Positions 2,882 through 55,378 of a stretch of 64,000 bases of DNA are shown here, piece after piece; the stretch's first letter is position 1; every line of letters starts with the position of its first letter. A program made the translations under genes and the position numbers. Under the pieces are notes generated by a model, which was not told the origin of the DNA, searched no databases, and saw only the letters and a program-made list of their open reading frames with translations. Origin of the DNA: Parcubacteria bacterium C7867-001 (GTDB taxonomy: Bacteria > Patescibacteriota > Minisyncoccia > Phycocordibacterales > Phycocordibacteraceae); contig LFCK01000001.1 in the NCBI GenBank assembly GCA_001189095.1, positions 149,251 to 213,250 of the forward strand. The letters run 5' to 3'.

Positions 2882-4000
2882 CTACTTCTTTCCTGCGAAG
2901 GCGAGCGTCATGCGCTGGTCCTTTGGCTCGAAGAGCTTGATGACGAACGGATAGCTCTTGCCGAGTTCGAGTGTCTCGCGGAGTTCCTGCGGACTTTCGA
3001 ATTCCGACATGTGGACGAGTCCGGCAACACCTTCCTCGATGGATGCGAGTGCGCCATGCTTGTTGTACTTGATGACAACGCCCGTAACCTCCATGCCCTT
3101 CTTGTAGCGATCGTTTGCCGACTTCCAAGGGTTCTCTTTGAGCGCCTTGATGGAGAGGGAGACTTTGCCTTCCTTTATCTCGATGACTTTGACCTTTACC
3201 GCGTCGCCCACCTTGAACATTGCGCGCGGGTCTTCAACGAGGCCCCAGTCGAGCTCAGAGATGTGCACGAGGCCTTCGAGGCCCTGTTCGAGCTTCACGA
3301 AGACGCCGAAGTCGACTGCGCCGGTGACTTCGCCGTTTACGACGTCACCAACCTGATACTTATCGACGAGTGATGCCTTCTCAGTCTCTTCCTCATCGAG
3401 ACGTTCAGAGAAGATGAGTTTTCCTTCCTTCGCGTCTGCGGTGATGATGCGGACCGGAAGCGTGGTGCCCACGAGCTTGCCGAGTTCAGAAAGGATTTTG
3501 TCCTTATCTCCTTCCGGCACGCGCGGATAATGATCCTTCGTAAGCTGAGAAGCAGGAAGGAAGCCCTTGATGCCCTGCCATGAAAGGATGAGGCCGCCCT
3601 TGTTCGCTTCTTCGACGGTGAGGTTGTAGATGGTCTGAGAAATGATTGCGGTTTCCGCTTCACCCCAGATAGCTGCCTGACGAGCTTCCTTGAGAGAGAG
3701 TTCGATGTAGCCATCGCGACCAGAAAGGTCAACGACCTTCGCCGTGATGGTGTCGCCCGGATTCGCCTTGCGAAGGACGTCCGCTGCGTTGAGGTATTCG
3801 CGGCCGTAAATGAGGCCGGTGCCGAACGGCGGAAGATCGACGTACACCTTGCCGCGGGTAAGTGCGATGATGGTGCCCTCGATCAAATCTCCCGAACGAG
3901 GCGGGGTAGCGATGCTTTCGATAAGACCGGCCATTGGGTGGCCTTCTTCGACAACGACCGTCATGGGGATGGTCGGAGTCTTTTTCTCCTCGTGCTCCAT
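2882..4000 (-). CDS. rpsA: 30S ribosomal protein S1 (multi-S1-domain)
   Basis: Repeated S1-domain patterns (GxxVxGxVxxxxxxGxFVxL, e.g. GDVVNGEVTGAVDFGVFVKLEQGLEGLVHISEL). Start assigned to the internal ATG (MEHEEKK...). Alternative start 27 nt upstream at 4027. No strong SD at either, which is typical for rpsA. Confidence 0.85.
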   Translation of the reverse strand: MEHEEKKTPTIPMTVVVEEGHPMAGLIESIATPPRSGDLIEGTIIALTRGKVYVDLPPFGTGLIYGREYLNAADVLRKANPGDTITAKVVDLSGRDGYIELSLKEARQAAIWGEAETAIISQTIYNLTVEEANKGGLILSWQGIKGFLPASQLTKDHYPRVPEGDKDKILSELGKLVGTTLPVRIITADAKEGKLIFSERLDEEETEKASLVDKYQVGDVVNGEVTGAVDFGVFVKLEQGLEGLVHISELDWGLVEDPRAMFKVGDAVKVKVIEIKEGKVSLSIKALKENPWKSANDRYKKGMEVTGVVIKYNKHGALASIEEGVAGLVHMSEFESPQELRETLELGKSYPFVIKLFEPKDQRMTLAFAGKK

Positions 4001-7191: not shown

Positions 7192-9657
7192 ATGGCTAAG
7201 AAGGAAGCACCGGAAACGCCTCCGCAGAATGCGGCACAGGTCATAGAGCAGAGCATTGTCGGCGAGATGCGCTCGTCGTATCTCGACTATGCAATGTCCG
7301 TCATCACGAGTCGCGCGCTTCCGGACGTTCGTGACGGTTTGAAGCCGGTGCATCGCCGCATCCTCTACTCGATGTATGAAAACGGGAACACGGCGAGCGG
7401 TCGCACGAAGAAATCGGCAACGGTGGTCGGCGACGTGATCGGTAAGTATCACCCGCACGGCGACGTTGCTGTGTACGACGCGATGGTAAAGCTCGCTCAG
7501 GAATTCACGACACGTTATCCGCTCATCATCGGTCAAGGTAACTTCGGTTCGGTCGACGGTGATCCACCGGCAGCCTACCGCTACACCGAAGCGAAAATGT
7601 CGCGCCTCGGCGGCTCTTTGCTTGATGATCTCGATAAGGAGACGGTGTCGTGGAATCCAAACTACGATGGCTCGAAGAAAGAGCCAGTGGTGCTTCCGGC
7701 GACAGTTCCGAACCTTCTCCTCAATGGCACGCTCGGCATCGCCGTCGGTATGGCGACGAATATTCCGCCGCACAATCTGCGCGAAGTGGTTGCAGCAACC
7801 ACGCACCTCATCGATGACTCGTCAGCAACCACCGACGATCTCCTTGAGTTCGTGAAGGGTCCTGACTTCCCGCTTGGTGCCGTTGCGTTCAATCAGGCGG
7901 ACATTAAGCACGCCTATGTAAACGGTAAGGGCGGCGTGGTCGTGCGCGGCGAGGCGGAAATCATCGAAGAGAAGAAGGGAACCATCATCGTCATCACCTC
8001 CATTCCGTTCCGCGTGAACAAGGCGGATCTCATCACCCGCATGGCAGAACTCGTGCATGAAAAGAAGCTTGAGGGCATCAAGGACCTTCGCGATGAATCG
8101 ACCGACGACATCCGTGTCGTGGTGGAACTCAAAGGTACGGCGCATCCGCAGCAGGTCTTGAACGCGCTCTACAAGCATACCGAGCTCGAGAGCACCTTCC
8201 ACTACAACATGCTCGCGCTTGTCGACGGCGTGCCGCAGACACTTTCTTTGAAGGGCATCCTCGAGCAGTTCATCAAGCATCGCCGCGAGGTGGTGAAGCG
8301 CCGCACGGAATACGATCTTAGGAAAGCGGAAGAGCGCGAGCATATTCTCCTCGGCCTCTCCAAAGCACTCGATCATATCGATGAAATCATCGCGATCATC
8401 AAGAAGTCGAAGGATGTTCCGGAAGCGGACGCGGCGCTCCAAAAGAAATTTAGTTTCTCTGAACGCCAGACGGCCGCCATCCTTGCGATGCGTCTCCAGA
8501 CGCTCGCTGGTCTCGAGCGCAAGAAAATCGAAGACGAACTCACGGAAATTCAGGAACTCATCAAGAAGCTGAAGAAAATCCTTTCCTCGGAAAAGAATAT
8601 CCTCGCCGTTGTTCGCGAAGAGCTCGTTGCGGTCGCTGAGAAGTACGGCGACGATCGCCGCACGAAGATCGTGAAGGGTGGCGTAAAAAATATTTCCATA
8701 GAAGACATGGTGCCGGATGAGGAGTCCGTGCTCGTGATTACTGCAGGCGGATACGTGAAGCGCACGAATCCGAATGAATACAAAGCGCAGAAGCGTGGCG
8801 GCGTCGGCGTTATCGACATGTCGACCAAGGAAGAAGATGTGGTGACGCATTTCCTCTCCACCAGTGCGCATTCGGATCTCCTCTTCTTTACCGACTACGG
8901 CAAGGTGTACCAGACGAAGATGTACGACATTCCGGAAGGACGCCGTGCAACCAAGGGAAAGTCCATTATGAACTTCCTCCCGCTTGCGGCCGACGAAAAG
9001 GTGACGAGCGTTTTGCCGGTGCCGAAGGGAGCCGAGCGCGCTGCGCTTTCGGTGGTACTTGTGACGGACGCCGGTGTCGTGAAGAAGGTCGAGGCGAAAA
9101 ATTTTGCAGACGTGCGTCGCTCGGGCATCATCGCTATCAATCTCAAAGCGCCAGACAGGCTCGTTTCCGCAAACCTTGCGGGCACGGGCGACAGCGTTTC
9201 CATCGTTACCTCCGCTGGTCAATCAATTCGTTTTGACGAAGAAGAAGTTCGCGCAATGGGACGCACGGCAGCGGGTGTCCGCGGCATGAGCGTGAAGAAA
9301 GGAGACTATGTCGTCTCAGCGGAAGTCATTCCGGCAAACGCAAAGAAAGCAGCGCTCCTTGTCGTCATGGAGAAGGGTTACGGCAAGCACACTGATATGG
9401 ATGAATATAAGGTGCAGGGTCGCGGCGGCTCCGGAATAAAGACGGCGGACGTGACCGCGAAGACGGGAAAGATTATCGGTGCGAAAGTTCTCGCAGGCGA
9501 GGATTTGAAAGTAGAAGAAATCGTCGTCATTTCGAAGAAGGGACAAGTCATCCGCGTTTCAGCATCAGAAATCCCATCACTTTCGCGCGCGACGCAGGGC
9601 GTACGCATTATGAAAATGCGCGAAGGGGATTCCATCGCTTCCATGGTCGCTCTGTAG
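7192..9657 (+). CDS. gyrA: DNA gyrase subunit A
   Basis: Canonical GyrA blocks: [37 protein letters not shown] (active-site Tyr), [14 protein letters not shown]. 821 aa with C-terminal beta-pinwheel repeats. Confidence 0.95.
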
Positions 9658-9794
9658 TTCCTCCGAAAATACGCCATCTGCTGCGTTGCGGAGCCTCCCG
9701 ATTTCTTCCAAGGAACTGATTTTTTAGTGATCGAAAATAATACAGCAAATAAGCCATACTTTTAGCACTCTGGGTGGACATTTTTTAAAAGTAC

Positions 9795-9822
9795 TTGACA
9801 AATTTAGTGGTTTGTGTATATT
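9795..9822 (+). promoter_or_regulatory. Near-consensus sigma70 promoter (TTGACA - 16 nt - TATATT)
   Basis: TTGACA at 9795-9800 and TATATT at 9817-9822. Predicted TSS around 9829-9831 (gggagaagg). Confidence 0.55.
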
Positions 9823-9829
9823 GGGAGAA

Positions 9830-10370
9830 GGTTAGTCAAGTGGGATGCCGTTTGTTTTGGAGGTACCGGGCAACCGGGAGACCACTCAAGCGCCGCACTG
9901 GCTTTGGAACTGCTGGGATGCTTCTGGGGGCACTCGTTGCCTTTTGGACAGGGGATCTTAGCGGTGAAGGAGACAGAAACGGACCGTCGTAGGGCCTCGA
10001 AACCCTCGATCAGAGGTCCGCAGCAAGAGCGGACAGCAGGCATCTGCACTCTGACGTTGTTCTTTTGAAACGTAAAACAAAAGAGGTAACCAGGTTGGAC
10101 TTCGGGCGATTTTCGCTCGGTCCGCTGCGAGGCGCTTGTCGCCCGCAGAAAATCTAACCCCTGGATGAGTCGCGTGCGACTCATGGGTAGCCGGATAAAC
10201 GCGGCGTGGGTCTCTAATGACTTGCGCACATCGCGTCCCAAAACCGGTAGGCAAATGAAACGAGCCTCGGAATCGGAAGTTGGCTTCGAACACCAACTCT
10301 GACGACGAAACAGTTCACCCCGAAGGGCCGACTCGCACTTAGTTGCGACGAGGCCCTTTATCTTTTTCTA
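9830..10370 (+). ncRNA. Candidate ~540-nt structured non-coding RNA or long leader (family unknown)
   Basis: ~700 bp without a credible ORF in an otherwise tightly packed genome. GC-rich with many local hairpins. Bounded by the promoter above and by a weak hairpin plus U-tract (cgaggccctttatctttttc, ~10325-10370). No RNase P, tmRNA, SRP or 6S signature found by eye. Confidence 0.3.
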
Positions 10371-10404
10371 TGCTAAGCTGCCCGACGGAAGAAAGGAGAA
10401 CGAC

Positions 10405-10701
10405 ATGTTTTCGGTCGAACATATCGATACGGACCGGGTGCTCGCACCCGGTGAACGCGTTATTTACTTCAGAGGCTATCTCGCCAAGTACCAACTCGGC
10501 ACGTATGGCGTGGCTGGCGTGAATCGCGAGTGGGCGTGGAAGCAGCACCGCGAAGGCCGTGCCATCCTCGTGCAGCGGCGCATGGGGCCGAATGATTTCG
10601 AATACATCGCTATTGGCCGAGCGCGTCCTGAGCGCAAGGACAATGTCGTCGACATCAAGAAGCGGCCGTACAATCGTGAACGTCGCCTTCCGGAACTGTA
10701 A
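10405..10701 (+). CDS. Hypothetical protein (98 aa)
   Basis: AAAGGAG SD 7 nt upstream of the ATG. Followed by a strong hairpin terminator at 10728-10748. Confidence 0.55.
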   Translation: MFSVEHIDTDRVLAPGERVIYFRGYLAKYQLGTYGVAGVNREWAWKQHREGRAILVQRRMGPNDFEYIAIGRARPERKDNVVDIKKRPYNRERRLPEL

Positions 10702-10727
10702 GTTCCAGTTTTCAGAAAATAACGGGC

Positions 10728-10800
10728 GCCGCGTAGCGGCGCCCGTTTTCTAAAACCTCTAAAATCGAAGTTTGTTAATTACGGGCGCCGCTACGCGGCG
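10728..10800 (+). terminator. Two copies of the same 9-bp-stem GC hairpin (gggcgccgc-NNN-gcggcgccc) 52 nt apart in inverted orientation, each followed by a T-tract
   Basis: 10728-10748 has loop gta and 10780-10800 has loop tac. The second is the exact reverse complement of the first. Confidence 0.6.
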
Positions 10801-10820
10801 CCCGTGTTATTTTTAGCGTA

Positions 10821-11354
10821 ATGAGGGGCTTTGCTGATCCTAAAGAGAACATTCTCCATCTCGGTCTGCGCGACGGGAATCGCGTTGCGGATCTTGGCGC
10901 GGGAAGCGGTCACTACGCGCTTGCGGCAGCCGCCATCGTGGGGCACGACGGCAAGGTGTACGCGATAGATCTTCAAGAAGACATTCTCACGCGTCTAAAA
11001 AATGAAGCGGAGCATCGCAAATTACGGAACGTCGACATCATCTGGAGCGACTTCGAAAAAGCAGGAGGCACAAAGCTTCGCGACAACACTATCGATGCAG
11101 TCATCCTTTCAAACACGCTCTTTCAGCTTTCGAAAAAGGAAAGTGCTATCGCCGAAATAAAGCGCATCCTGAAGCCGGGAGGGAAGTTGCTTGTCATCGA
11201 TTGGGCGGGTGCGTATGGCGGGATGGGTCCCGCACCGCACCATGTGGTTCCTGAACGAACTGCGGAAGAATTGTTTATCAATGGTGGTTTCCATAAGGTA
11301 AAATCAGTACGAGGCGGCCCGCACCACTACTCCTTACTTTTCACTTGTCCATGA
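10821..11354 (+). CDS. Class I SAM-dependent methyltransferase
   Basis: Motif I VADLGAGSGHYAL and post-I acidic residue (YAIDLQEDIL). 177 aa. Confidence 0.8.
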   Translation: MRGFADPKENILHLGLRDGNRVADLGAGSGHYALAAAAIVGHDGKVYAIDLQEDILTRLKNEAEHRKLRNVDIIWSDFEKAGGTKLRDNTIDAVILSNTLFQLSKKESAIAEIKRILKPGGKLLVIDWAGAYGGMGPAPHHVVPERTAEELFINGGFHKVKSVRGGPHHYSLLFTCP

Positions 11355-12646
11355 GACCTTTCCAAACCAGCATAATTGCAGTATTCATCATTTTCGCGCT
11401 GCTCGGTCTCTTCGTCTTTGCGACCTATAGCGGCTTTGGCGGCAGCAAGACTTCGGTGGGGAAGATACAAATCTGGGGCACGCTTCCTCAGGACGGCATG
11501 GATCAGGCAATCAGCATTCTCTCGCAAGCGAATAAAGACTATAAGGACATAACCTACAAGCAGTATCCTGCCGCATCCTTTGATGCGGAGCTCGCGAATG
11601 CTATTGCCTCGGGTGCGGGTCCTGATCTCATCATCATTACGCAGGAGCAGTTGCTCTTGGAGGCTTCAAAGCTCACCACTGTTTCCTTCAAGACGCTTCC
11701 GCAGCGTACCTATGTAAATACGTACATTCCCGAAGCGTCGCTCTTCCTTGGTGCTGATGGAACGTACGGCGTTCCGTATGTCGTCGATCCGCTCGTAATG
11801 TATTTCAATGAATCCATGCTTGCGTCTGCCGGTGTCGCGACACCGCCGACTTCGTGGGAAGCTGTGAATGCTCTTGCGCCGAAGCTCACTAAGCAATCTG
11901 CAAACCAAACCATCACGAAGAGTGCGGTCGCTTTCGGAGGTTATGGAAACGTGAACAACGCGCGTGCAATCGTTTCGCTCCTTTTGCTCCAATCGGGCAA
12001 TCAAATTTCCCAGCAAGCTTCGCAAGGTATGCGTTCAACGCTCTCAGATGCGCCGTCGGGCACCTTCGGTGCTTCTCCGGCGGAAGCGTCGCTCAATTTC
12101 TACACGCAGTTCGCAAATCCCTCGAAGACCACCTACTCGTGGAATGCGTCGCTACCGTCTGCGCGCCAAGCATTCCTCTCGGGCGATCTCGCGCTCTATT
12201 TCGGCTTTGCTTCCGAGCGCCCGTTCCTCGAAGAAGCGAACCCGAATCTTCGCTTCGACATGGCGCGGGTGCCGCAGCCGGCAGCCGCGAGCTCAAGAAT
12301 TTCTTACGCGAACCTCTACGCATTCGCGGTACCGAAGGCTTCGAAGAATCCTACCGGCGCCTACAAGACGGCGCTCGCGCTGACCGATACGGATCCGCTT
12401 CTCGCCGCGGCCTACGGCATGGGACTCGCACCCGCAAAACGTGCGCTGCTTTCTCCAGCAACAGATGATCTTTTCGGTCCAGTCTTTTATCCAGAAGCAC
12501 TCACTGCGCAGGGCTGGCTGTCCCCAGCGCCTGCAAGTACGGACCGCATCTTTGCCGGTATGATAGACACTGTAGTCACCGGCAGGGGCGATTCGCAGGA
12601 CGCGCTTCAATCCGCCGAACAATCATTCAATGCTGCATTCCGCTAA
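11345..12646 (+). CDS. Membrane-anchored extracellular solute-binding protein (ABC-transporter SBP-like)
   Basis: N-terminal TM anchor (IIAVFIIFALLGLFVFA). 433 aa with overall SBP-like composition (WEAVNALAPKL..., GYGNVNN...). Family assignment by resemblance only. Confidence 0.6.
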   Translation: MSMRPFQTSIIAVFIIFALLGLFVFATYSGFGGSKTSVGKIQIWGTLPQDGMDQAISILSQANKDYKDITYKQYPAASFDAELANAIASGAGPDLIIITQEQLLLEASKLTTVSFKTLPQRTYVNTYIPEASLFLGADGTYGVPYVVDPLVMYFNESMLASAGVATPPTSWEAVNALAPKLTKQSANQTITKSAVAFGGYGNVNNARAIVSLLLLQSGNQISQQASQGMRSTLSDAPSGTFGASPAEASLNFYTQFANPSKTTYSWNASLPSARQAFLSGDLALYFGFASERPFLEEANPNLRFDMARVPQPAAASSRISYANLYAFAVPKASKNPTGAYKTALALTDTDPLLAAAYGMGLAPAKRALLSPATDDLFGPVFYPEALTAQGWLSPAPASTDRIFAGMIDTVVTGRGDSQDALQSAEQSFNAAFR

Positions 12647-16784: not shown

Positions 16785-16857
16785 GCGCCCATAGCTCAGT
16801 TGGTAGAGCAACTGCCTCTTAAGCAGTGGGTCCCAGGTTCGAGCCCTGGTGGGCGCA
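16785..16857 (+). tRNA. tRNA-Lys (anticodon CTT)
   Basis: Acceptor gcgccca/tgggcgc. D-arm gctcagttggtagagc. Anticodon stem actgc/gcagt with loop ctcttaa. T-loop ggttcgagccc. Followed by a long perfect hairpin terminator (16858-16902). Confidence 0.9.
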
Positions 16858-16910
16858 CAAAGACAGAAAAACCTGCCCTGCGGCAGGTTTTTCTGTCTTT
16901 GTGCGAGCCG

Positions 16911-16975
16911 CAGCCATGTTTTGTCAGTAGACAAAACGGCGAGGCGGGATCGCGGAATTTTGCGAGTGTCGACGA
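16911..16975 (+). repeat. Copy A of a ~65-nt conserved non-coding element (gttttgtcagYagacaaaacSgcgaggcgg ... gagtgtcgacgag)
   Basis: Second copy at 61110-61174 with the same two conserved blocks and a variable middle. Both copies sit next to tRNA sequence. Confidence 0.6.
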
Positions 16976-17003
16976 GCAAAAGATCTGTGATCACAAAATC
17001 CAG

Positions 17004-17085
17004 TGCCGAGGAGAGGACTCGAACCTCCATCCCTTGCGGGGCCTGCTCCTAAGGCAGGTGCGTCTACCAATTTCGCCACCTCGGC
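17004..17085 (-). tRNA. tRNA-Leu (anticodon TAG)
   Basis: Acceptor gccgagg/cctcggc. Anticodon stem cctgc/gcagg with loop cttagga. Long variable arm. T-loop ggttcgagtcc. Confidence 0.85.
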
Positions 17086-21014: not shown

Positions 21015-23705
21015 ATGCCGCCATTCAAGAACTTCACCACCAAAGCAAAGGAAGCAATACGAAAAGCTCACGAGCTCGCTATTGAGCGCGGCCAGAATCA
21101 TGTCTCGCCGCTTCATCTTCTTACCGCACTCATCCATCAGGAGGAGTCGTTGGTTTTCTCTGTGCTTGATCGCATGGACATCGACGTCATGCTCCTTTCC
21201 GATACGCTCCTTGAGATTCTCGAGACGCCGGAAACTTCCTCTGTGCTTTCGCCGAGTTACCAGCTCTACCTCACGCCGGATCTCGCTGCAGCGCTTGAAG
21301 CTTCAGGAAAAGTCGCAGCGCGCCTTAATGATCCGTTTGTCGGTACCGAGCATTTGTTTGTCGCAACGCTTGAGCATCCAGGGCCGGCAGGAGATGCACT
21401 CGCTCGTTTCAAAATTGATCCGGAGACCGTCGTTTCTGTGCTTCGCGAACTGAAGAATACGAAAGACGGACAGGTGGTCGAGCCAAAGCGTTTCCGCACG
21501 CTCGCAAAATATACGAGGAATCTTACTAAGCTTGCGTCTGAGAACGCACTTGATCCGGTCATTGGCCGCGATCAGGAAATACATCGCGTCATCCAGATCC
21601 TTTCGCGCCGCACGAAGAATAATCCCGTGCTCATCGGTGAACCGGGCGTTGGTAAGACCGCTATCGCGGAGGGAATGGCGCAGCGCATCGCTTCGGGTGA
21701 CGTGCCGAGCTCGCTCAAGGGCAAAGAGCTTCTTTCGCTCGACTTGGGTCTCATGATTGCAGGAACGAAATATCGCGGCGAGTTCGAGGAACGCATGAAG
21801 AGCGTTATGAAGGAAGTCGAGCGCGGCGAAGGAAAGATAATTCTCTTCATCGACGAGCTCCACACACTCATCGGCGCTGGCGCCGCAGAGGGTGCGATGG
21901 ATGCTTCGAACATGCTCAAGCCGGCGCTTGCGCGCGGCGAGTTCCGCATGATTGGCGCAACAACGCTCAAGGAATACCAGCAGCACATCGAAAAGGATGG
22001 TGCGCTCACGCGCCGCTTCCAGCCGGTCTATGTCGAAGAGCCTTCGGTCGAAGACGCGATTGCGATTCTTCGCGGGCTCCGCGACAAATACGAGCTTTTC
22101 CATGGCATTCGCATCACGGACGGTGCTATTGTTTCTGCCGTCGAGCTTTCTGCTCGCTATATTTCCGATCGTTATCTTCCCGACAAAGCAATAGACTTAA
22201 TCGATGAAGCGGGATCCGGTCTGCGCATCGCGCTTGAGAATAAGCCGACGCTCCTCGAAGAGTCTGATCGCAAGATCCGACGCCTTGAGATTGAGCGCGA
22301 AGCGCTCAAGAAGGATGCTGAGAGCGCAGCTGAAACCACGGTGCGTGGTAAAGAGATTCGTGATCGTGTGCAAGCGATTGACGAAGAGGTCGCCGATTTG
22401 CGTGAGAAGACCTCGGAGCTCGAACTTAAATGGAAAAACGAAAAGGAGGTACTTGAAAGCATTCGAACCATAAAAACGGAACTCGATAAATTGCGCGTTC
22501 AGGCAGAAAATGCGGAAGCGATTGCGGACCTTGGAACAACCGCAGAAATCCGCTACGGCAAGATTCCGCTCCTCCAAAAAGAGCTCGAAACAAAGATGAA
22601 GCGCTTGAAGACGCTGCAGAAGTCGCGTCGCGTTTTGCATGAAGAGGTGACTGAGCACGAGATTGCGAGCGTCGTTTCTCGGTGGACCGGTATCCCCGTC
22701 AACAAAATGATTGAAGAGGAAGCGGCTAAGCTCTCTCGCATGGAAGAGGCGCTCAAGTCCGCGGTGGTCGGCCAAGATGCTGCAGTGAAAATTGTTTCGG
22801 ACGCAGTGAAGCGTTCTCGTGTCGGCATTAGCGATCCGAACAAACCAATCGGCTCCTTCCTTTTCCTCGGACCAACGGGTGTCGGTAAGACAGAGCTTTC
22901 CCGAAAACTTGCGGAGTTTATGTTTAACGATGCTGATGCGCTCGTTCGCGTCGACATGTCGGAGTTCATGGAGAAACACTCGGTCGCAAAATTGATCGGC
23001 GCGCCTCCGGGCTACGTGGGCTATGAAGAGGCAGGAAGCCTTACGGAGCGTATCCGCCATCGCCCGTACGCGGTCATTCTCTTCGATGAAATCGAGAAAG
23101 CGCATCCGGAAGTATTCAACATTCTCCTGCAGGTACTCGACTCCGGTCATCTTACGGACGGTAAGGGACGCAAGGTGAATTTCAAGAACACCATCGTGGT
23201 ACTCACGAGCAACATCGGTTCTGAGTTTATCGACCGCATGTCCGGAATCGGATTCACGAGCTCGGCGAGCGCCGATGCGGACCAGTATGAGGCGACAAAG
23301 GAGAAGGTCATGAAAGCGCTTAAGGATCACTTCCGTCCAGAATTCCTCAATCGTCTCGACGACACAATAATCTTCGACGTGCTCTCCAAGGAGACGTTGA
23401 TTAAGATCGTCGATACTCAAGTTGCTGATGTGGTGAAGCGTCTTGCCGACAAGCGCATCGTTCTCACGCTCACGGATGAGGTGAAGTTGTGGCTTGCCGA
23501 CAAGGGATACAACCCACAGTACGGCGCACGACCGCTCAAGCGCGCGATTCAGGACAAAATCCTCACCCCAATAGCGACCCTTATGGTGGGTCAAGGCGTC
23601 ATGGAGGGCGGTGCCGTGAATGTCTCCATAAAGGCCGGAGAGCCTCATTTTGACGTCAAAAAGAGCGTTTCTCGGGTCCGAAAAGCTCCGAGCGTTACGG
23701 TTTAG
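21015..23705 (+). CDS. clpB: ATP-dependent chaperone ClpB
   Basis: Clp N-domain repeats, two AAA+ modules (GEPGVGKTAIAEGMAQRI; GPTGVGKTELSRKLA), a long coiled-coil M-domain between them, and C-terminal GARPLKRAIQ. 896 aa. Confidence 0.95.
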   Translation: MPPFKNFTTKAKEAIRKAHELAIERGQNHVSPLHLLTALIHQEESLVFSVLDRMDIDVMLLSDTLLEILETPETSSVLSPSYQLYLTPDLAAALEASGKVAARLNDPFVGTEHLFVATLEHPGPAGDALARFKIDPETVVSVLRELKNTKDGQVVEPKRFRTLAKYTRNLTKLASENALDPVIGRDQEIHRVIQILSRRTKNNPVLIGEPGVGKTAIAEGMAQRIASGDVPSSLKGKELLSLDLGLMIAGTKYRGEFEERMKSVMKEVERGEGKIILFIDELHTLIGAGAAEGAMDASNMLKPALARGEFRMIGATTLKEYQQHIEKDGALTRRFQPVYVEEPSVEDAIAILRGLRDKYELFHGIRITDGAIVSAVELSARYISDRYLPDKAIDLIDEAGSGLRIALENKPTLLEESDRKIRRLEIEREALKKDAESAAETTVRGKEIRDRVQAIDEEVADLREKTSELELKWKNEKEVLESIRTIKTELDKLRVQAENAEAIADLGTTAEIRYGKIPLLQKELETKMKRLKTLQKSRRVLHEEVTEHEIASVVSRWTGIPVNKMIEEEAAKLSRMEEALKSAVVGQDAAVKIVSDAVKRSRVGISDPNKPIGSFLFLGPTGVGKTELSRKLAEFMFNDADALVRVDMSEFMEKHSVAKLIGAPPGYVGYEEAGSLTERIRHRPYAVILFDEIEKAHPEVFNILLQVLDSGHLTDGKGRKVNFKNTIVVLTSNIGSEFIDRMSGIGFTSSASADADQYEATKEKVMKALKDHFRPEFLNRLDDTIIFDVLSKETLIKIVDTQVADVVKRLADKRIVLTLTDEVKLWLADKGYNPQYGARPLKRAIQDKILTPIATLMVGQGVMEGGAVNVSIKAGEPHFDVKKSVSRVRKAPSVTV

Positions 23706-24095: not shown

Positions 24096-24410
24096 ATGTC
24101 CTACAACGTTGCTCTCCGTTATACGGAGAAGGCTGGCGGGTACGCTGGTGTGATTTTCTGGAGCAGCTATCCCTCGAAGGAGGCGCTCCATGAATTCATC
24201 GGCTCTCAAGAAAAACTCGAAATTGTCGAAGAAGGCATCACCGAAGAGCTCGCTACTGCGCTCACGCGGCAAACGCCCTCTCGCAGCTACGCGAATGCGG
24301 CGCTCGCAGCCGCGACCGACCCTGAGACCGGCGAAGTCAATCCCGACCTGCTCGAACATGAAATGAGCAAGGCGGTGTTCGGCATTCGTCTTGCTGCACA
24401 GTCGGCGTAA
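24096..24410 (+). CDS. Hypothetical protein (104 aa)
   Basis: AGGAGG SD 6 nt upstream of the ATG at 24096. The longer frame from 24042 lacks an SD. Confidence 0.45.
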   Translation: MSYNVALRYTEKAGGYAGVIFWSSYPSKEALHEFIGSQEKLEIVEEGITEELATALTRQTPSRSYANAALAAATDPETGEVNPDLLEHEMSKAVFGIRLAAQSA

Positions 24411-24436
24411 TAATCCGCTTGGTAATGGAGGACGAA

Positions 24437-24610
24437 ATGTCTGAGAAACGGAAACTCGTTAAAGGAGATCCGGAGCGCTTCAAGAAGTTCTGGCCTTCGG
24501 GCCGGCCGCAGATGCCAGTGGGGTACAACGCTCCTCTCGATACTCGGCCGACGATTCAGATCATCCGCGAACGCGATGAAGCCGATGCGGCCGCTGGCCG
24601 TACGTGGTAA
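24437..24610 (+). CDS. Hypothetical small protein (57 aa)
   Basis: GGAGG SD upstream. Terminator hairpin aagccgctccc ttt gggagcggctt at 24613-24640. Confidence 0.4.
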   Translation: MSEKRKLVKGDPERFKKFWPSGRPQMPVGYNAPLDTRPTIQIIRERDEADAAAGRTW

Positions 24611-24654
24611 ATGCTAAGCCGCTCCCTTTGGGAGCGGCTTTGGATTTTGTAATG

Positions 24655-24806
24655 ATGCGGGCCCACGAGGACCGCGAGTACGCGTATCGGTCCTTACAGG
24701 ACCTGTACACGTTGCGGATATTTCAGTTCGCCTCACTCCTGAAATATGCTCGCAACATTTTCGATTCCTCGACGCAGACGCCCCGCGTCTGCGTGGGCCC
24801 GCATGC
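24655..24806. repeat. Hairpin-rich ~150-nt element closed by inverted copies of the tRNA-Trp 3' end
   Basis: gcgggcccacgagg at 24659-24672 and tcgattcctcg[22-nt palindromic insert]tgggcccgc at 24764-24806. Both match the T-arm/acceptor 3' segment of the adjacent tRNA-Trp. At least three internal hairpins lie between them. Confidence 0.5.
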
Positions 24807-24835
24807 AAAAACCGCCTTGCGGCGGCTTTGCAGTG

Positions 24836-24906
24836 CGGGCCCACGAGGAATCGAACCTCGGCCGACGGTTTTGGAGACCGACGTTCTACCATTAAACTAT
24901 AGGCCC
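24836..24906 (-). tRNA. tRNA-Trp (anticodon CCA)
   Basis: Acceptor gggccta/tgggccc. Anticodon loop ctccaaa. T-loop ggttcgattcc. Hairpin plus T5 terminator downstream on the minus strand (24808-24832). Confidence 0.85.
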
Positions 24907-51516: not shown

Positions 51517-52125
51517 ATGCAAGACGATCCATTTCTAGGAACTAAGGACGGGCTTAGTGTCCTAGGTGGAGAAGTATCTAATTTTTACCAATTAGGATTT
51601 GGTCAACTTGATATCAGCGAAGAGGAAATTAGTAAAGCTGGGCGATTGATACATGTTTTGTCGATTATAAAGCTTGAAGGATTACGTCCAGAAAAGTATC
51701 CCGCGAAGGGTGTAACGAATGATCATCACAGGCATTTACAAGGTGCATTATTCGCTTTTGGAACTGAAGGAGTTAATCACGAATGGAGAGAACACTCCGC
51801 ATCATCTATACGAGAAATGATTTCAGGCTTTGCTTCGTCTGAACTGGAATTTAATGAGAACGTAAGTAAGTATGGGACTAATCAGAATACTAATTCAGAT
51901 GAACTTAAAAAGATAGAATCGGCTTGTAAAAAAATAAAGAAGTACTACCAATTTTTTACTGGCGTAACACATCATCAACAGGCAGCCATTACTAATGGAT
52001 TCCGTCAATTAGAAGATTTAAGTGCAGAAAATGAAAGATGCTTGAGCGTCGATAGTTTTAAATTAGTGTTCAAACATTTCTTTATTGATTTGAAGAAAAT
52101 CATTACAGTATTTCCAGACCTATGA
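51517..52125 (+). CDS. Hypothetical protein (202 aa), translationally coupled to the next gene
   Basis: ATGA overlap with the 52122 start. No recognisable motif. AT-rich codon usage typical of the island. Confidence 0.5.
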   Translation: MQDDPFLGTKDGLSVLGGEVSNFYQLGFGQLDISEEEISKAGRLIHVLSIIKLEGLRPEKYPAKGVTNDHHRHLQGALFAFGTEGVNHEWREHSASSIREMISGFASSELEFNENVSKYGTNQNTNSDELKKIESACKKIKKYYQFFTGVTHHQQAAITNGFRQLEDLSAENERCLSVDSFKLVFKHFFIDLKKIITVFPDL

Positions 52126-55064
52126 AACAGCTTCAATTACATCGCAAAATAGATGAGTTTTTGAAAGCAGGAATTGCAACCGCGTCTGTTGATGTTGCGC
52201 AAGGGTTTATTCATGGTAACGAAGACTCAAAGCGGTATTTCTTTGCACAGGCAAATGAGTCTTGGCTAAGATGGTTCTTCGATAATGGTCTCTTTGAGGA
52301 ACTTAAGAAAAAAGCCGAAGATCCGACTAAGTACGGATACCGTCTTTCAGAACTTGAGTATCTAACAAGAATGGCGGATAAAGAGCCTCAGACTGTAGTG
52401 GATATTATTCTTTCCATCTCTATCACCAAGGACACCTTCAATCCTGAGGTAATAGATAGATTTTTCTGGATTACAGGACTACTGCCAATCACTCAAATAA
52501 AACAGATTCTACCAAAGATTCTCTCTGAAAATTGGTTGTTGCTGATGTCACCATTTAGTAAGTCTGGATACGAGTATCAGAAGATGGTCGAGAAGCTAAG
52601 TGAAGCTAAGGATTATGACGCTCTCCTTATTCTCACTCAAATCATTCTCACCGTTCGTGCAAAAGAAGAGTTCGCTGACTCGGAACGCTTTTTCATATCG
52701 GATAAATTGTTCTACCTTGGCGATATCAACGCTACGGGTATATTTGATGTAATCACAAATACTGAGAATCCAAAGAAAGAGGAGTTTTTGAAGGTTACCC
52801 TAGACACCCTCGCGATAGTTGTTGATTTGGGTAAAGAAAGAGAAGAGACTGTCTTTGATAAAACGGAACCGTTTTATTTACTCGATGTCGATATATTTGC
52901 TCTTGAACTTGATACGGGTAAGCGGTCTCATCTAAGAGAAGACATTCAAAATCTTGTTGCAACAGCTAAAGTTCTTGTTCGCTCTACAATCGGCTCTCTC
53001 TGTGAGAACGAGTTAGAAACAAGGCGAATATACGATACATATATTGCGACCCTGCCAGATAGTCTTACTTGCTGGAGATTGAAGCTCTACTCGATTACTC
53101 GTTGCCCCGAGGTCTTTAAAGTTGAAATCAAAGAGGCGTTATTCCGCGCATTCAATGTGGGAGAAAGATATTTTGAAATCGATGGAGGTGCCGAGTACCA
53201 TAGAGGTCTCATTGCTGGTTTTGGTGCACTTGATGATGCGACAAAAAGAGAGTATGTCAGCAAAGTCATTGAATATTACGGCGCTACTTTAGACGATAAG
53301 GATCGAGAGGGGTGGAGAAAGAGAGATGGTCTAGAGATATTAGGCTATATCAAAACTTATCTAACTCCAGAAGAATTCACAATCTCTGAACCAATCTTGG
53401 GAGTTATACCTACGGGTGAGGTTGTTGTACCACATCCGTCAGTCGGAAAAGTCACTAGTGGAATGGTACTCCACAAATCACCGTTTAACCCAGCAGATAT
53501 TACAATCGACGAACTCATTAATCACCTTAAAACTGACTCAACACCGAAAGCACTTAATGAGCAGTACAAGAATGACGATTTCCTCAGCCCGCGCGGAGCT
53601 GAGGGACTTAGTGATGCAATAAAAGAAGATTTTAAAATACGAAGAGTTGAGTATTTGAGCAATCTCAATAAGTTCTTTGACCGTGATGCAATTGACCCCG
53701 TGTATGTTTATGGACTTCTTCGTCAGGTAGAAGACATGCTTCGAGCAAAAGAAGCATTTAGTACTACTGAATATCTTCAGTTAATAAGCTTCTTTACTCT
53801 CATCGAACAATCTGGAACAGAGGTCGAATTTGAGCCAGCAGAGGAAAGACCTTACTGGGCTGACTGGATAACTGTGCACAAATCTATGGCAGATGTGTTA
53901 CTTGAGATTCTTGCACTAATGAAAGATTCCCAGACATTCAAAGATAATAGAGCACAAATATTCTCCTTGGTTAAATATCTTCTTTCCATCAAGAGTAGCC
54001 CTGATGCAGAGGACGATAAACGAGAATCAAATGAGCCAGCTCATGTAGCCATCAATTCCGTGCGTGGCCAGGCGTATAGAGCGTTCGTACAATTCACCTA
54101 TAACGAAGGAAATAAAACATTGTCGGAGGACGTAAAGACTCTCTACGAGCATGTGTTGGCTACTGATAGCTCAAACGCAGTCAGGTTTACGATAGGTCAA
54201 TTTTTGGCATCATTCTATTTCCGCGACATCCCGTTTATTACAAGTCTATTTCCAAAGCTATTCCCGAAAGCAGAAGCCGGTAAAGAAAAGGCTTACTTCG
54301 CGACATGGGAAGGGTATCTCGCGAGCTCGCTATACAAAGAGCTTTTTGAAGCACTTAGGGAATATTACGAATATGCAATAAACATCGATCCAGAGACGTA
54401 CCCTGATCGGAAATACCTCAAAGGATTAGATGAAACTCTTGCTGTCCATATCGCACTTGCGTACGCGCACTTCGATTTCAACATAGGTGATCCTTTGTTT
54501 GATCTATTCTGGAATACTGCTAATGAGACCCGTCATTACGAGTTCGTGTCATTTGTTGGGCGAACTTGTATCACTCGAAGTCAGGCTGGCGATGCTTGGT
54601 TTGCTGAAAATAATGTAAGCAAAGAAAAGCTCATTGAGTTCTGGAATTGGATTATTGCTACAGATATTCCGATTGAATCAAAAGCGTTTTCGGGCTTTGG
54701 GTTCTGGATAAATCCTGACAAGGAAATCATTGATGAGAAGATACTCATCCAAAACCTTTCAACTACTCTTGAAAAATCCGAGGGTGAGGTTGATTGGGAT
54801 TACGGTCTAACCCGTAGAATAAAAGTATTTGCTGAAATTGATCCAGAAAATACGCTCGAAATAATTCGACACTTCTTGTTGCAGGGTAACGAACTGAATT
54901 CGCATAGACGAGCACCTTTATTCAGTATTGATACTGAAATCAAAGAAGCTCTCGAGATTATCTATACGAACGAGCGACTAAAACAGGGTGTCGAAGACCT
55001 CATCAATCTTCTCATTGAAAGGGGTAGTAGTGTCTTCTGGGGGCTCAAAGACATCCTCAAATAG
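52122..55064 (+). CDS. Large hypothetical protein (980 aa, predicted alpha-helical, no recognisable catalytic motif)
   Basis: Single uninterrupted ORF. No Walker, HEPN, PD-(D/E)xK or zinc-finger motifs visible by eye. Weak hairpin (agggc ttcgcaa gccct) after the stop. Confidence 0.6.
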   Translation: MKQLQLHRKIDEFLKAGIATASVDVAQGFIHGNEDSKRYFFAQANESWLRWFFDNGLFEELKKKAEDPTKYGYRLSELEYLTRMADKEPQTVVDIILSISITKDTFNPEVIDRFFWITGLLPITQIKQILPKILSENWLLLMSPFSKSGYEYQKMVEKLSEAKDYDALLILTQIILTVRAKEEFADSERFFISDKLFYLGDINATGIFDVITNTENPKKEEFLKVTLDTLAIVVDLGKEREETVFDKTEPFYLLDVDIFALELDTGKRSHLREDIQNLVATAKVLVRSTIGSLCENELETRRIYDTYIATLPDSLTCWRLKLYSITRCPEVFKVEIKEALFRAFNVGERYFEIDGGAEYHRGLIAGFGALDDATKREYVSKVIEYYGATLDDKDREGWRKRDGLEILGYIKTYLTPEEFTISEPILGVIPTGEVVVPHPSVGKVTSGMVLHKSPFNPADITIDELINHLKTDSTPKALNEQYKNDDFLSPRGAEGLSDAIKEDFKIRRVEYLSNLNKFFDRDAIDPVYVYGLLRQVEDMLRAKEAFSTTEYLQLISFFTLIEQSGTEVEFEPAEERPYWADWITVHKSMADVLLEILALMKDSQTFKDNRAQIFSLVKYLLSIKSSPDAEDDKRESNEPAHVAINSVRGQAYRAFVQFTYNEGNKTLSEDVKTLYEHVLATDSSNAVRFTIGQFLASFYFRDIPFITSLFPKLFPKAEAGKEKAYFATWEGYLASSLYKELFEALREYYEYAINIDPETYPDRKYLKGLDETLAVHIALAYAHFDFNIGDPLFDLFWNTANETRHYEFVSFVGRTCITRSQAGDAWFAENNVSKEKLIEFWNWIIATDIPIESKAFSGFGFWINPDKEIIDEKILIQNLSTTLEKSEGEVDWDYGLTRRIKVFAEIDPENTLEIIRHFLLQGNELNSHRRAPLFSIDTEIKEALEIIYTNERLKQGVEDLINLLIERGSSVFWGLKDILK

Positions 55065-55378
55065 AGCTGTTGGTAAGAGGGCTTCGCAAGGCCCTATATC
55101 TAAGCTAAGGTTCTAAAAGGTAGCGCAATTTGCTATCATAGTCCTTGTACAACAAAGACCTAACCTCTAGAAAACGCTTAGTTTCCTAGAGCATGGTCGG
55201 AATAACAAAACCGCTACAGTATAGAAGGCTCCTCGTCAGAGTCACTGTAGCGGTCGTGTACTCGAAAGGGTATATGGGTTAGGCCGAAAGGTCTGATCGC
55301 AATGGCGGGGAGCCTTCTGTCCCACGACTCTAGGCTCCCTGCTACTTATTAGCAGAAGCTAAAACCGCTACAGTGCAT

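Follow-up and report, generated by a model that had tools for sequence, protein, structure and literature searches.

The 64,000-nucleotide stretch of Parcubacteria bacterium C7867-001 analysed here (hereafter the window) carries beside its tRNA-Trp gene a small hairpin-rich element, at positions 24656-24849, which we tentatively read, giving the reading a little less than an even chance, as a miniature cassette without any open reading frame (ORF), lodged in the 3' part of that gene and belonging to a broad family of cassettes at Patescibacteria tRNA genes. The element is described on the plus strand of the window, which is antisense to tRNA-Trp. The tRNA-Trp gene itself (24835-24906, minus strand, CCA anticodon) is intact and canonical, scoring 67.8 bits, and the local gene order runs ClpB (21015-23705), ribosomal protein L33, two small ORFs, the element, tRNA-Trp, a gene resembling a type IV secretion system (T4SS) pilin gene and MiaA.

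The element is bounded by a direct repeat, the 16-mer TGCGGGCCCACGAGGA, which a repeat finder placed at 24656-24671 (DR1) and at 24834-24849 (DR2) with 16/16 identity. DR2, on the minus strand, is the functional 3' end of the tRNA-Trp gene, that is its last 15 nt followed by 1 nt of trailer; DR1, on the same strand, reproduces the T-stem 3' strand, the acceptor 3' strand and the discriminator G plus 2 nt. When up to 2 mismatches are allowed the 16-mer has 3 matches in the window, against 0.02 expected, and none of 100 shuffles reached 3. A preliminary description of this DNA had recognised a 14-mer copy of the tRNA-Trp 3' end and had the element closed on both sides by inverted copies of it. 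The repeat is real, although it is 16 nt long and its coordinates had been given 1-3 nt off; and because the copy at 24834-24849 is the 3' end of the gene, the left copy (24656-24671) is a direct and not an inverted repeat. There is nonetheless an inverted copy inside the element, between the direct repeats. Its first part, TTCGATTCCTCG (24760-24771, plus strand), matches the T-loop and T-stem 3' strand at 12/12 positions in the orientation opposite to the gene and pairs with the CGAGGA of DR1; its second part, TGGGCCCGCA (24794-24803, plus strand), matches the acceptor 3' strand plus GCA and forms 10 bp with TGCGGGCCCA of DR1. Together the two parts span 22 nt of tRNA-Trp, from the T-loop to two nt beyond the discriminator, and DR1 on the plus strand supplies the 5' strand of the closing helix. 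They are split, as had been reported, by a perfect palindrome, ACGCAGACGC-CCC-GCGTCTGCGT (24772-24794), whose 10-bp stem and CCC loop form a hairpin, hpC, that sits exactly between the T-stem-like and the acceptor-like halves. The direct repeat ends in CCCGCA, versus the CCCGCCA of the mature molecule, and is therefore a copy of the gene rather than of the mature CCA-tailed tRNA.

The internal hairpins noticed earlier are also genuine. The first (24669-24693, GGACCG..CGGTCC) encloses an inner hairpin, CGCG-AGTA-CGCG, and contains a 19-mer, CCGCGAGTACGCGTATCGG (24672-24690), that is identical in another locus, L202, whose tRNA-Trp acceptor stem differs. It is followed by the short palindrome TACAGGACCTGTA (24695-24707) and by a long two-part hairpin (24711-24756) made of GTTGCG/CGCAAC and ATATTTCAG/CTGAAATAT, the 12-nt loop of which, TTCGCCTCACTC, resembles YTCGYCGTCACTC, a long-loop variant of hairpin P2 in the family-1 core considered below. 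The insert measures 146 bp and is without ORF. Between the inverted copy and the tRNA gene, a spacer hairpin on the minus strand (24804-24832, CCGCC-TTGC-GGCGG with TTTTT on that strand) acts as the tRNA-Trp terminator. The flanking terminators of the preliminary description correspond to terminator-like hairpins at 24616-24640 (plus strand, 11-bp stem with a T-rich tail, ending the upstream small ORF 24419-24610 and forming the outer left boundary of the intergenic region) and at 24811-24823 (minus strand). Folding, proposed at the time as a check, placed both strands far below shuffled sequences: for a 185-nt stretch the plus strand reaches -93.5 kcal/mol (z = -8.3) and the minus strand -98.9 kcal/mol (z = -7.9), and no shuffle folds as well on either. 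Searching Rfam at the gathering threshold and at E up to 10, only the tRNA itself was matched at the element, and no promoter-like site was found there.

Comparable inserts recur at other tRNA-Trp genes. A metagenome scan with a degenerate tRNA-Trp pattern matched at least 120 independent loci (these and the loci from other searches have the prefix L below). The 120 listed are a pattern-biased sample in which frequencies are rough: in 22 of them 14 nt or more of the tRNA tail of the same locus recur exactly, 88-320 nt downstream of the tRNA, and an insert was recognised by either the repeat or a match to the conserved core in 30, about a quarter. The repeat sequences vary between loci exactly in step with the acceptor and T-stems of the tRNA, and they reach 2-5 nt into the trailer, outside the tRNA (GCA in the window, GATT in L118, AGAT in L159). 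The junction lies in the T-loop, at 55/56 in every member of the main family and at 59/60 in the subfamily of the window. The order of parts, namely DR1, hairpins, inverted copy, spacer hairpin and DR2 with the tRNA, is found also in L012, L218, L160, L202 and all family-1 members. The hairpin hpC is present in eight elements, at Trp and Leu loci, and in each it separates exactly the two halves of the inverted copy; every stem is perfect, with 7-10 bp, no two are alike, and the loops are CCC or GCNG. The palindrome itself, for which a search had been suggested earlier, is unique in the window, and the same module, with other stems, is present in seven other elements.

In L012, a low-GC locus obtained from a ClpB search of a genome collection (ClpB 66% identical), the order is L33, a terminator, 22 nt copied from the tail of the locus's own tRNA-Trp, hairpins over about 114 nt and then the tRNA. 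L218 is syntenic with the window (L33, terminator, element, tRNA-Trp, pilin, MiaA), and its element combines a family-1 core (27 bits) with hpC; the inverted copy perfectly matches its own, different tRNA and the direct repeat has decayed. This last locus bears on an explanation without any insertion or function, in which the whole arrangement is an ordinary terminator cluster that arose by local palindrome extension and quasi-palindrome correction. Template-switch correction indeed predicts an inverted copy that tracks its own tRNA while the direct repeat decays, and in the window the inverted copy, the spacer and the tRNA 3' end make up one palindrome (arms 24792-24816 and 24821-24845, 80% complementary). 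Such a process, however, leaves unexplained a non-palindromic core conserved across tRNAs and genomes, the conserved nucleotides of its loops and junctions, tandem divergent units and a cassette with the same boundary filled by a GIY-YIG nuclease gene (see below), and we consider it very improbable. The preliminary description had held that an arrangement alike in all relatives, with no second copies and no covariation, would speak for an ordinary cluster; what we found was patchy presence, second copies and strong covariation.

The patchiness is apparent among lineages sharing the acceptor end of the window's tRNA-Trp, GCGGGCCCA: the window has an element of the hpC type, L124 one of the family-1 type, and L161 a core-like match that is weak and below threshold (17.3 bits, E 0.06), and no element was found in L007, L151 and L190. 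L007, in which ClpB is 82% identical, thus has no such element at its tRNA-Trp. It carries 3.4 kb of unrelated genes (8900-12330) between L33 and tRNA-Trp, so that the region 3' of tRNA-Trp is variable in this group; two proteins encoded in that insert have C-termini that look PEP-CTERM-like by eye.

Most inserts have in common a core of about 65 nt that forms a covarying three-way junction. On the antisense strand it follows the repeat, which ends in ...GGAATCG, and consists of hairpin P2 (GGTCAC...GCGACC), CC, a short GCC/GGC helix enclosing an internal loop and a hairpin, hpB, then TTT and a CGATTCC that runs on into an inverted copy, complete to varying degrees, of the tRNA tail, after which come the spacer hairpin and the tRNA. 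A covariance model, R1, comprising P2, P3/hpB and the T-loop helix, was built from 13 members and gave about 40 significant matches in the fetched loci, with E-values that are approximate. In the R1 alignment 89.9% of the cells are paired versus 70.6% in shuffles, double-sided changes are seen in 25 of the 26 pairs, and sliding the partners against each other abolishes the signal. The stems are 90.5% Watson-Crick, and wobbles are rare on both strands (24 G.U versus 19 A.C in 971 modelled pairs). The fold of the core is under selection.

The core is not confined to tRNA-Trp. Including Trp, six tRNA species carry it, always on the 3' side and in convergent orientation: it adjoins tRNA-Tyr in L156, L009 and L171, tRNA-Leu-CAA in L157, L170, L159 and L150, tRNA-Leu-TAA in L009 and L010, tRNA-Lys in L012 and L171 and tRNA-Cys in L171, where, over 15 kb, as many as four of the six neighbouring tRNA genes carry the module. 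The tail of the neighbouring tRNA supplies both the direct repeat and the inverted copy at several of these loci (e.g. L156-Tyr, L157-Leu, L009-Tyr and L171-Lys), as with GGTGCGCCGGGAGGGATTCG, which occurs twice beside tRNA-Tyr in L156; L170-Leu and L009-Leu-TAA have no more than a partial or diverged direct repeat. The window itself contains a second element (stretch 16859-17002), between tRNA-Lys (16785-16858, plus strand) and tRNA-Leu-tag (17003-17085, minus strand), with a family-1 core (P2, P3/hpB) at 16906-16992 on the minus strand that R1 detects at 24.1 bits (E = 1e-5). It is convergent with tRNA-Lys, from which a 22-bp hairpin separates it, and its closing helix, TTTGTG/CACAAA, derives from the tRNA-Lys trailer and not from the T-arm.

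Cores beside different tRNAs may be nearly the same (L156-Tyr versus L150-Trp, 92% identical; L170-Leu versus L122-Trp, 90%), whereas the Trp and Leu cores within L157, or within L150, are at most 73% identical. Core similarity tracks neither the tRNA species nor the genome. Vertical retention also occurs, since the spacers of L122, L144, L145 and L200 share sequences and the tRNA-Lys copies of the window and L012 are alike, both as judged by eye. The spread over tRNA species is difficult to reconcile with a scar of a large element, i.e. a prophage or island at tRNA-Trp that was later deleted, bringing its left and right attachment (att) sites, attL and attR, to about 180 bp from one another and leaving the hairpins as idle remains of attP arms. 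A direct repeat of a tRNA 3' end is the classic att signature, and the variable 3.4-kb insert of unrelated genes in L007 lies at the corresponding place 3' of tRNA-Trp. Independent deletions, however, would not give dozens of lineages, and six tRNA species, the same 65-nt covarying core; nor did we see a long-range repeat bounding a large island at any locus, or a viral contig with the core or the site. A scar is therefore improbable.

Several loci hold more than one unit or the remains of one. There are two identical tandem units in L159 and in L181, two different ones in L097, of which the distal is about 86% identical to that of L012, two divergent ones in L149, the distal more decayed than the proximal, and truncated or nested pieces in L132 and L152. 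Sequences unrelated to the core fill the repeat-bounded inserts of L181, L182/L189 and L215, in which the T-loop boundary is nevertheless the same. In L189 a GIY-YIG nuclease ORF (2899-3180, minus strand; PF01541, E = 1e-13) fills a 319-bp insert flanked by a 23-nt repeat of the tRNA-Trp tail, and an ORF of L182 (347-676, plus strand), at the same T-loop boundary, matches it (phmmer, E = 1.8e-17). In 13 of the fetched loci, including L215, L117, L116, L096, L125 and L156, small GIY-YIG ORFs are found close to tRNA genes; none was detected in the window. The two units of L181, read in minus-strand orientation, are 88 bp long and hairpin-rich, each with a 23-nt repeat of the tRNA-Trp tail, and may be a further type of cassette.

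The reading as a miniature cassette agrees with units that are duplicated in tandem or decayed, with a GIY-YIG gene as unrelated cargo at the same junction, with the patchy distribution and with a core decoupled from tRNA and host. We propose that a DNA bearing its own copy of a tRNA 3' end, together with a hairpin or terminator, would have recombined with the gene in the T-arm. The incoming DR2 would now complete the working tRNA, the spacer hairpin having arrived together with it, and the original 3' end, DR1, would have been displaced about 180 bp downstream, giving the direct repeat. The inverted copy allows one strand, of DNA or RNA, to fold into a branched hairpin whose closing helix reproduces the tRNA acceptor/T-arm duplex, and this folded strand could be recognised in trans by a recombination or nicking enzyme, in the manner of integron attC sites and of the attP hairpin of the CTX phage. 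The flanking repeats may then permit tandem duplication as well as clean loss. We infer an insertion event as the origin of the repeat, the single-stranded fold as the active form and an enzyme of this kind.

The repeat begins in the T-arm, passes the discriminator and ends in the trailer, and it therefore records an event at the level of DNA; such a repeat is the known mark of DNA that enters a tRNA gene and supplies it with a replacement 3' end. In integron cassettes and the CTX phage, the order direct repeat, cargo, inverted copy, spacer and direct repeat is the product of folded-strand integration; because the order of repeats at our loci matches, the fold is proposed as the recognised form. 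The rarity of wobbles on either strand is as expected for DNA hairpins. An attB reaching from the T-loop to the tRNA 3' end is a known sublocation of integration (10.1101/2020.11.02.365908), and integration is known to leave partial tRNA copies as scars (PMC9897764).

A number of observations weigh against a cassette. There is no integrase, transposase or reverse transcriptase inside the cassettes or regularly beside them; a jackhmmer screen seeded with XerD placed tyrosine recombinases near only about 6 of the 120 loci, never within a cassette, and in the mapped cases, L178 and L155, on the far side of the tRNA. No free, phage-borne or plasmid-borne copy was found, and viral scans with three element patterns (the core, a looser core, and the 19-mer shared by the window and L202) returned no match each. 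No empty and filled sites sharing homologous flanks turned up among the loci, and so insertion was not observed: the four contigs of this strain that carry the neighbouring gene are 100% identical, homologues of the neighbouring pilin reach no more than 48% identity (L218, one of three examined, is syntenic and informative, unlike L219 and L220), and the homologues of the 104-aa ORF near the element are on contigs that end before its site. A simple integrase crossover, moreover, cannot explain how a core that moved gained an inverted copy matching its new tRNA. With filters off, R1 gives the focal element 5 bits (E = 1.6) and does not recognise it; the element is assigned to the family by its architecture, hpC, the P2-like loop and its syntenic counterpart in L218. 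Finally, the tRNA-sense strand has RNA-like traits, taken up below: a conserved G.U, purine-rich junctions and a GGA/GA internal loop. Since the focal copy, missed by R1, nevertheless has the architecture, hpC, the P2-like loop, the 19-mer of L202 and synteny with L218, we file it as a diverged member of the broader class of tRNA-tail cassettes and not of the modelled core family.

Tyrosine recombinase genes near tRNA-Trp were noted in three related loci, L178 (469-1503, on the 5' side of the tRNA), L207 (1185-2339) and L183 (2-196); of these L178 and L183 have an insert, and in L207 no direct repeat was found. The genes may be XerC/D-like housekeeping genes or may be connected with the cassettes. 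An origin from a phage attP was rejected, the 16-mer matching 11 viral contigs, all of them chance matches in coding sequence with no tRNA. The preliminary description had proposed an att remnant or a tRNA-derived miniature inverted-repeat transposable element (MITE). The direction was right, in that a direct repeat running from T-arm to trailer is as for insertion into a tRNA gene and that comparable inserts have been gained, lost and tandemly duplicated beside several tRNA species. We do not see, however, a random remnant of a large element but a conserved family of about 110-180 bp with a covarying fold, for which no integrase, transposase or phage counterpart turned up.

The traits of the tRNA-sense strand raise the alternative, akin to the tRNA-mimicking regulatory RNA also proposed in the preliminary description, of a structured RNA linked to the tRNA, some 110-150 nt long and made in the tRNA sense by read-through of the spacer or from a promoter of its own. 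Its closing helix would be a copy of the tRNA acceptor/T-arm minihelix with the same discriminator and trailer, and RNase P, 3' trimming and the CCA-adding enzyme might process it like a tRNA; it could mimic a tRNA, act as a decoy or carrier, or work in cis on the folding or processing of the pre-tRNA, all of which is compatible with a mobile origin. The three-way junction is conserved with compensatory changes, and the element is always 3' of a tRNA in one fixed orientation. P2 has, outside the modelled pairs, a conserved position that reads as an A.C mismatch in the antisense sequence and, in most members, as a G.U in the tRNA sense; the tRNA-sense strand is purine-rich in its junctions and internal loop (AAG, GG, GGA/GA), and it folds more stably in 13 of the 13 aligned members and in the focal copy. 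If only one strand is active, we favour the tRNA-sense strand by the P2 G.U, the purine-rich junctions and the fold energy. The choice could not be made by counting wobbles in the modelled pairs, which gave a tie (24 versus 19), nor by terminator polarity, as the spacer hairpins are mixed.

The spacers cut both ways for a structured RNA: many have no U-run, so that read-through is plausible, but several, that of the window among them, make good terminators in the tRNA sense. The resemblance of the tRNA-Lys copies in the window and L012 suggests long retention. On the other hand, there is no match to an Rfam family and no promoter-like site was found; beyond the one conserved wobble, G.U is as rare as A.C (24 versus 19 of 971), which is unusual for an RNA family; and repeats reaching into the trailer, truncated or nested copies and coding cargo at the same junction need a process at the DNA level anyway. 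On balance we regard a structured RNA as the main rival, plausible though less likely than the cassette. More generally, it is conceivable, if somewhat unlikely, that a new class of small nucleic-acid modules attaches to many different tRNA genes of Patescibacteria, both strands of the closing helix being rewritten each time as a copy of the acceptor/T-arm of the host tRNA, and that they are either target-templated, guide-like insertion cassettes with no encoded enzyme or a new family of tRNA-mimic RNAs that would be processed, and perhaps charged, together with their cognate tRNAs.

The genomes of Patescibacteria (CPR bacteria) are extremely small, and the load of modules is a large investment for a streamlined genome. 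It suggests either a very successful selfish element with unusual tRNA-specific targeting or an unrecognised aspect of tRNA biology in a third of bacterial diversity. On the practical side, displaced tRNA tails and tRNA-like helices can confuse programs that find tRNAs and islands. The family is absent from Rfam, and R1 can now be run on complete genomes. In the literature we found no description of this tRNA-flanking family but only related themes (scars, T-loop sites, introns and SegB), and it is apparently both widespread in Patescibacteria and undescribed.

Other features of the window may be recorded. The two small ORFs between L33 and the element (24096-24410, 104 aa, and 24419-24610, 63 aa, both on the plus strand) have no Pfam match, and among 5.8 billion sequences no more than 3 are homologous to the 104-aa protein (84%, 52% and 51% identity). 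Just after a 980-aa ORF (52122-55064), a match to LOOT RNA (RF03000) at 55157-55298 on the plus strand scores 50.4 bits against a gathering score of 46.4; GC in this stretch is 0.40-0.45 versus about 0.53 elsewhere, and it may be a foreign island.

How does the element compare with known systems? Some identities could be set aside. Group I introns occur in Patescibacteria tRNA genes in the anticodon loop (35/36) and at other sites (PMC13011429); here a group I intron, like a split or permuted tRNA, is rejected, for the tRNA is intact, DR1 is preceded by C instead of an omega-G, and nothing matched a ribozyme or Intron_gpI. A primer-binding site, or other pairing with mature tRNA, is rejected as well, the repeat lacking CCA and including trailer (4-5 nt of genomic trailer at other loci), and so is a long target duplication as made by casposons or clustered regularly interspaced short palindromic repeats (CRISPR) systems, the ends just inside the repeats not being, by eye, inverted repeats of each other. 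The tRNA-like modules (of the mascRNA type, viral tRNA-like structures and the tRNA-like domain of transfer-messenger RNA) also pair an acceptor with a T-stem in a minihelix with the correct discriminator, here next to a real tRNA; our elements differ in having no T-loop/D-loop elbow, in pairing the discriminator and the next bases and in matching no Rfam family, and their minihelix is one known in silico.

MITEs and REPINs (repetitive extragenic palindromic doublets forming hairpins) are, like the element, small and ORF-less, with terminal inverted complementarity and hairpins, present in multiple copies per genome and intergenic near terminators. In our case, however, the flanking repeat is tRNA sequence of a variable 14-24 nt, only tRNA 3' ends are occupied, and the inverted repeats are re-specified for each tRNA; the ends inside the repeats are not inverted repeats, by eye, and no partner transposase of the DDE or RAYT (REP-associated tyrosine transposase) type was identified. 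SegB of phage T4 is a free-standing GIY-YIG homing endonuclease gene within a tRNA cluster (PMC2330249). The small GIY-YIG genes beside tRNA genes in the 13 loci resemble it, those of L189 and L182 filling cassettes with the same boundary; the window's element, on the contrary, is without such a gene, and classical homing makes no target duplications.

Integrative elements that target tRNA genes, and the gene-less cis-mobilizable elements (CIMEs) derived from them, share with our family a direct repeat starting in the T-arm, the restoration of an intact tRNA, tandem accumulation and, as for CIMEs, the lack of internal recombination genes. The focal locus has the 16/16 repeat, the intact tRNA and the recognised T-loop sublocation of such elements, and its 146-bp insert has no ORF and hence no integrase of its own. 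It differs by size (88-320 bp over the family), by the covarying fold, by an internal inverted copy of the att sequence and by the use of at least six tRNA species, and neither a parental integrase-bearing element nor a phage copy was found. As to integron attC sites and the attP of the CTX phage, the core repeat is here 14-24 nt of tRNA sequence with the boundary GGTT|CGATTCC and, by inspection, not GTTRRRY; an IntI-attI platform did not turn up inside or beside the cassettes in the recombinase screen, which included no specific search for one, and there is no dif-like site. Yet they share with our family the order of the repeats, an imperfect duplex in a folded strand, the conservation of structure over sequence and the arrays of units, and by this analogy the cassettes beside Patescibacteria tRNA genes may likewise recombine as single strands.

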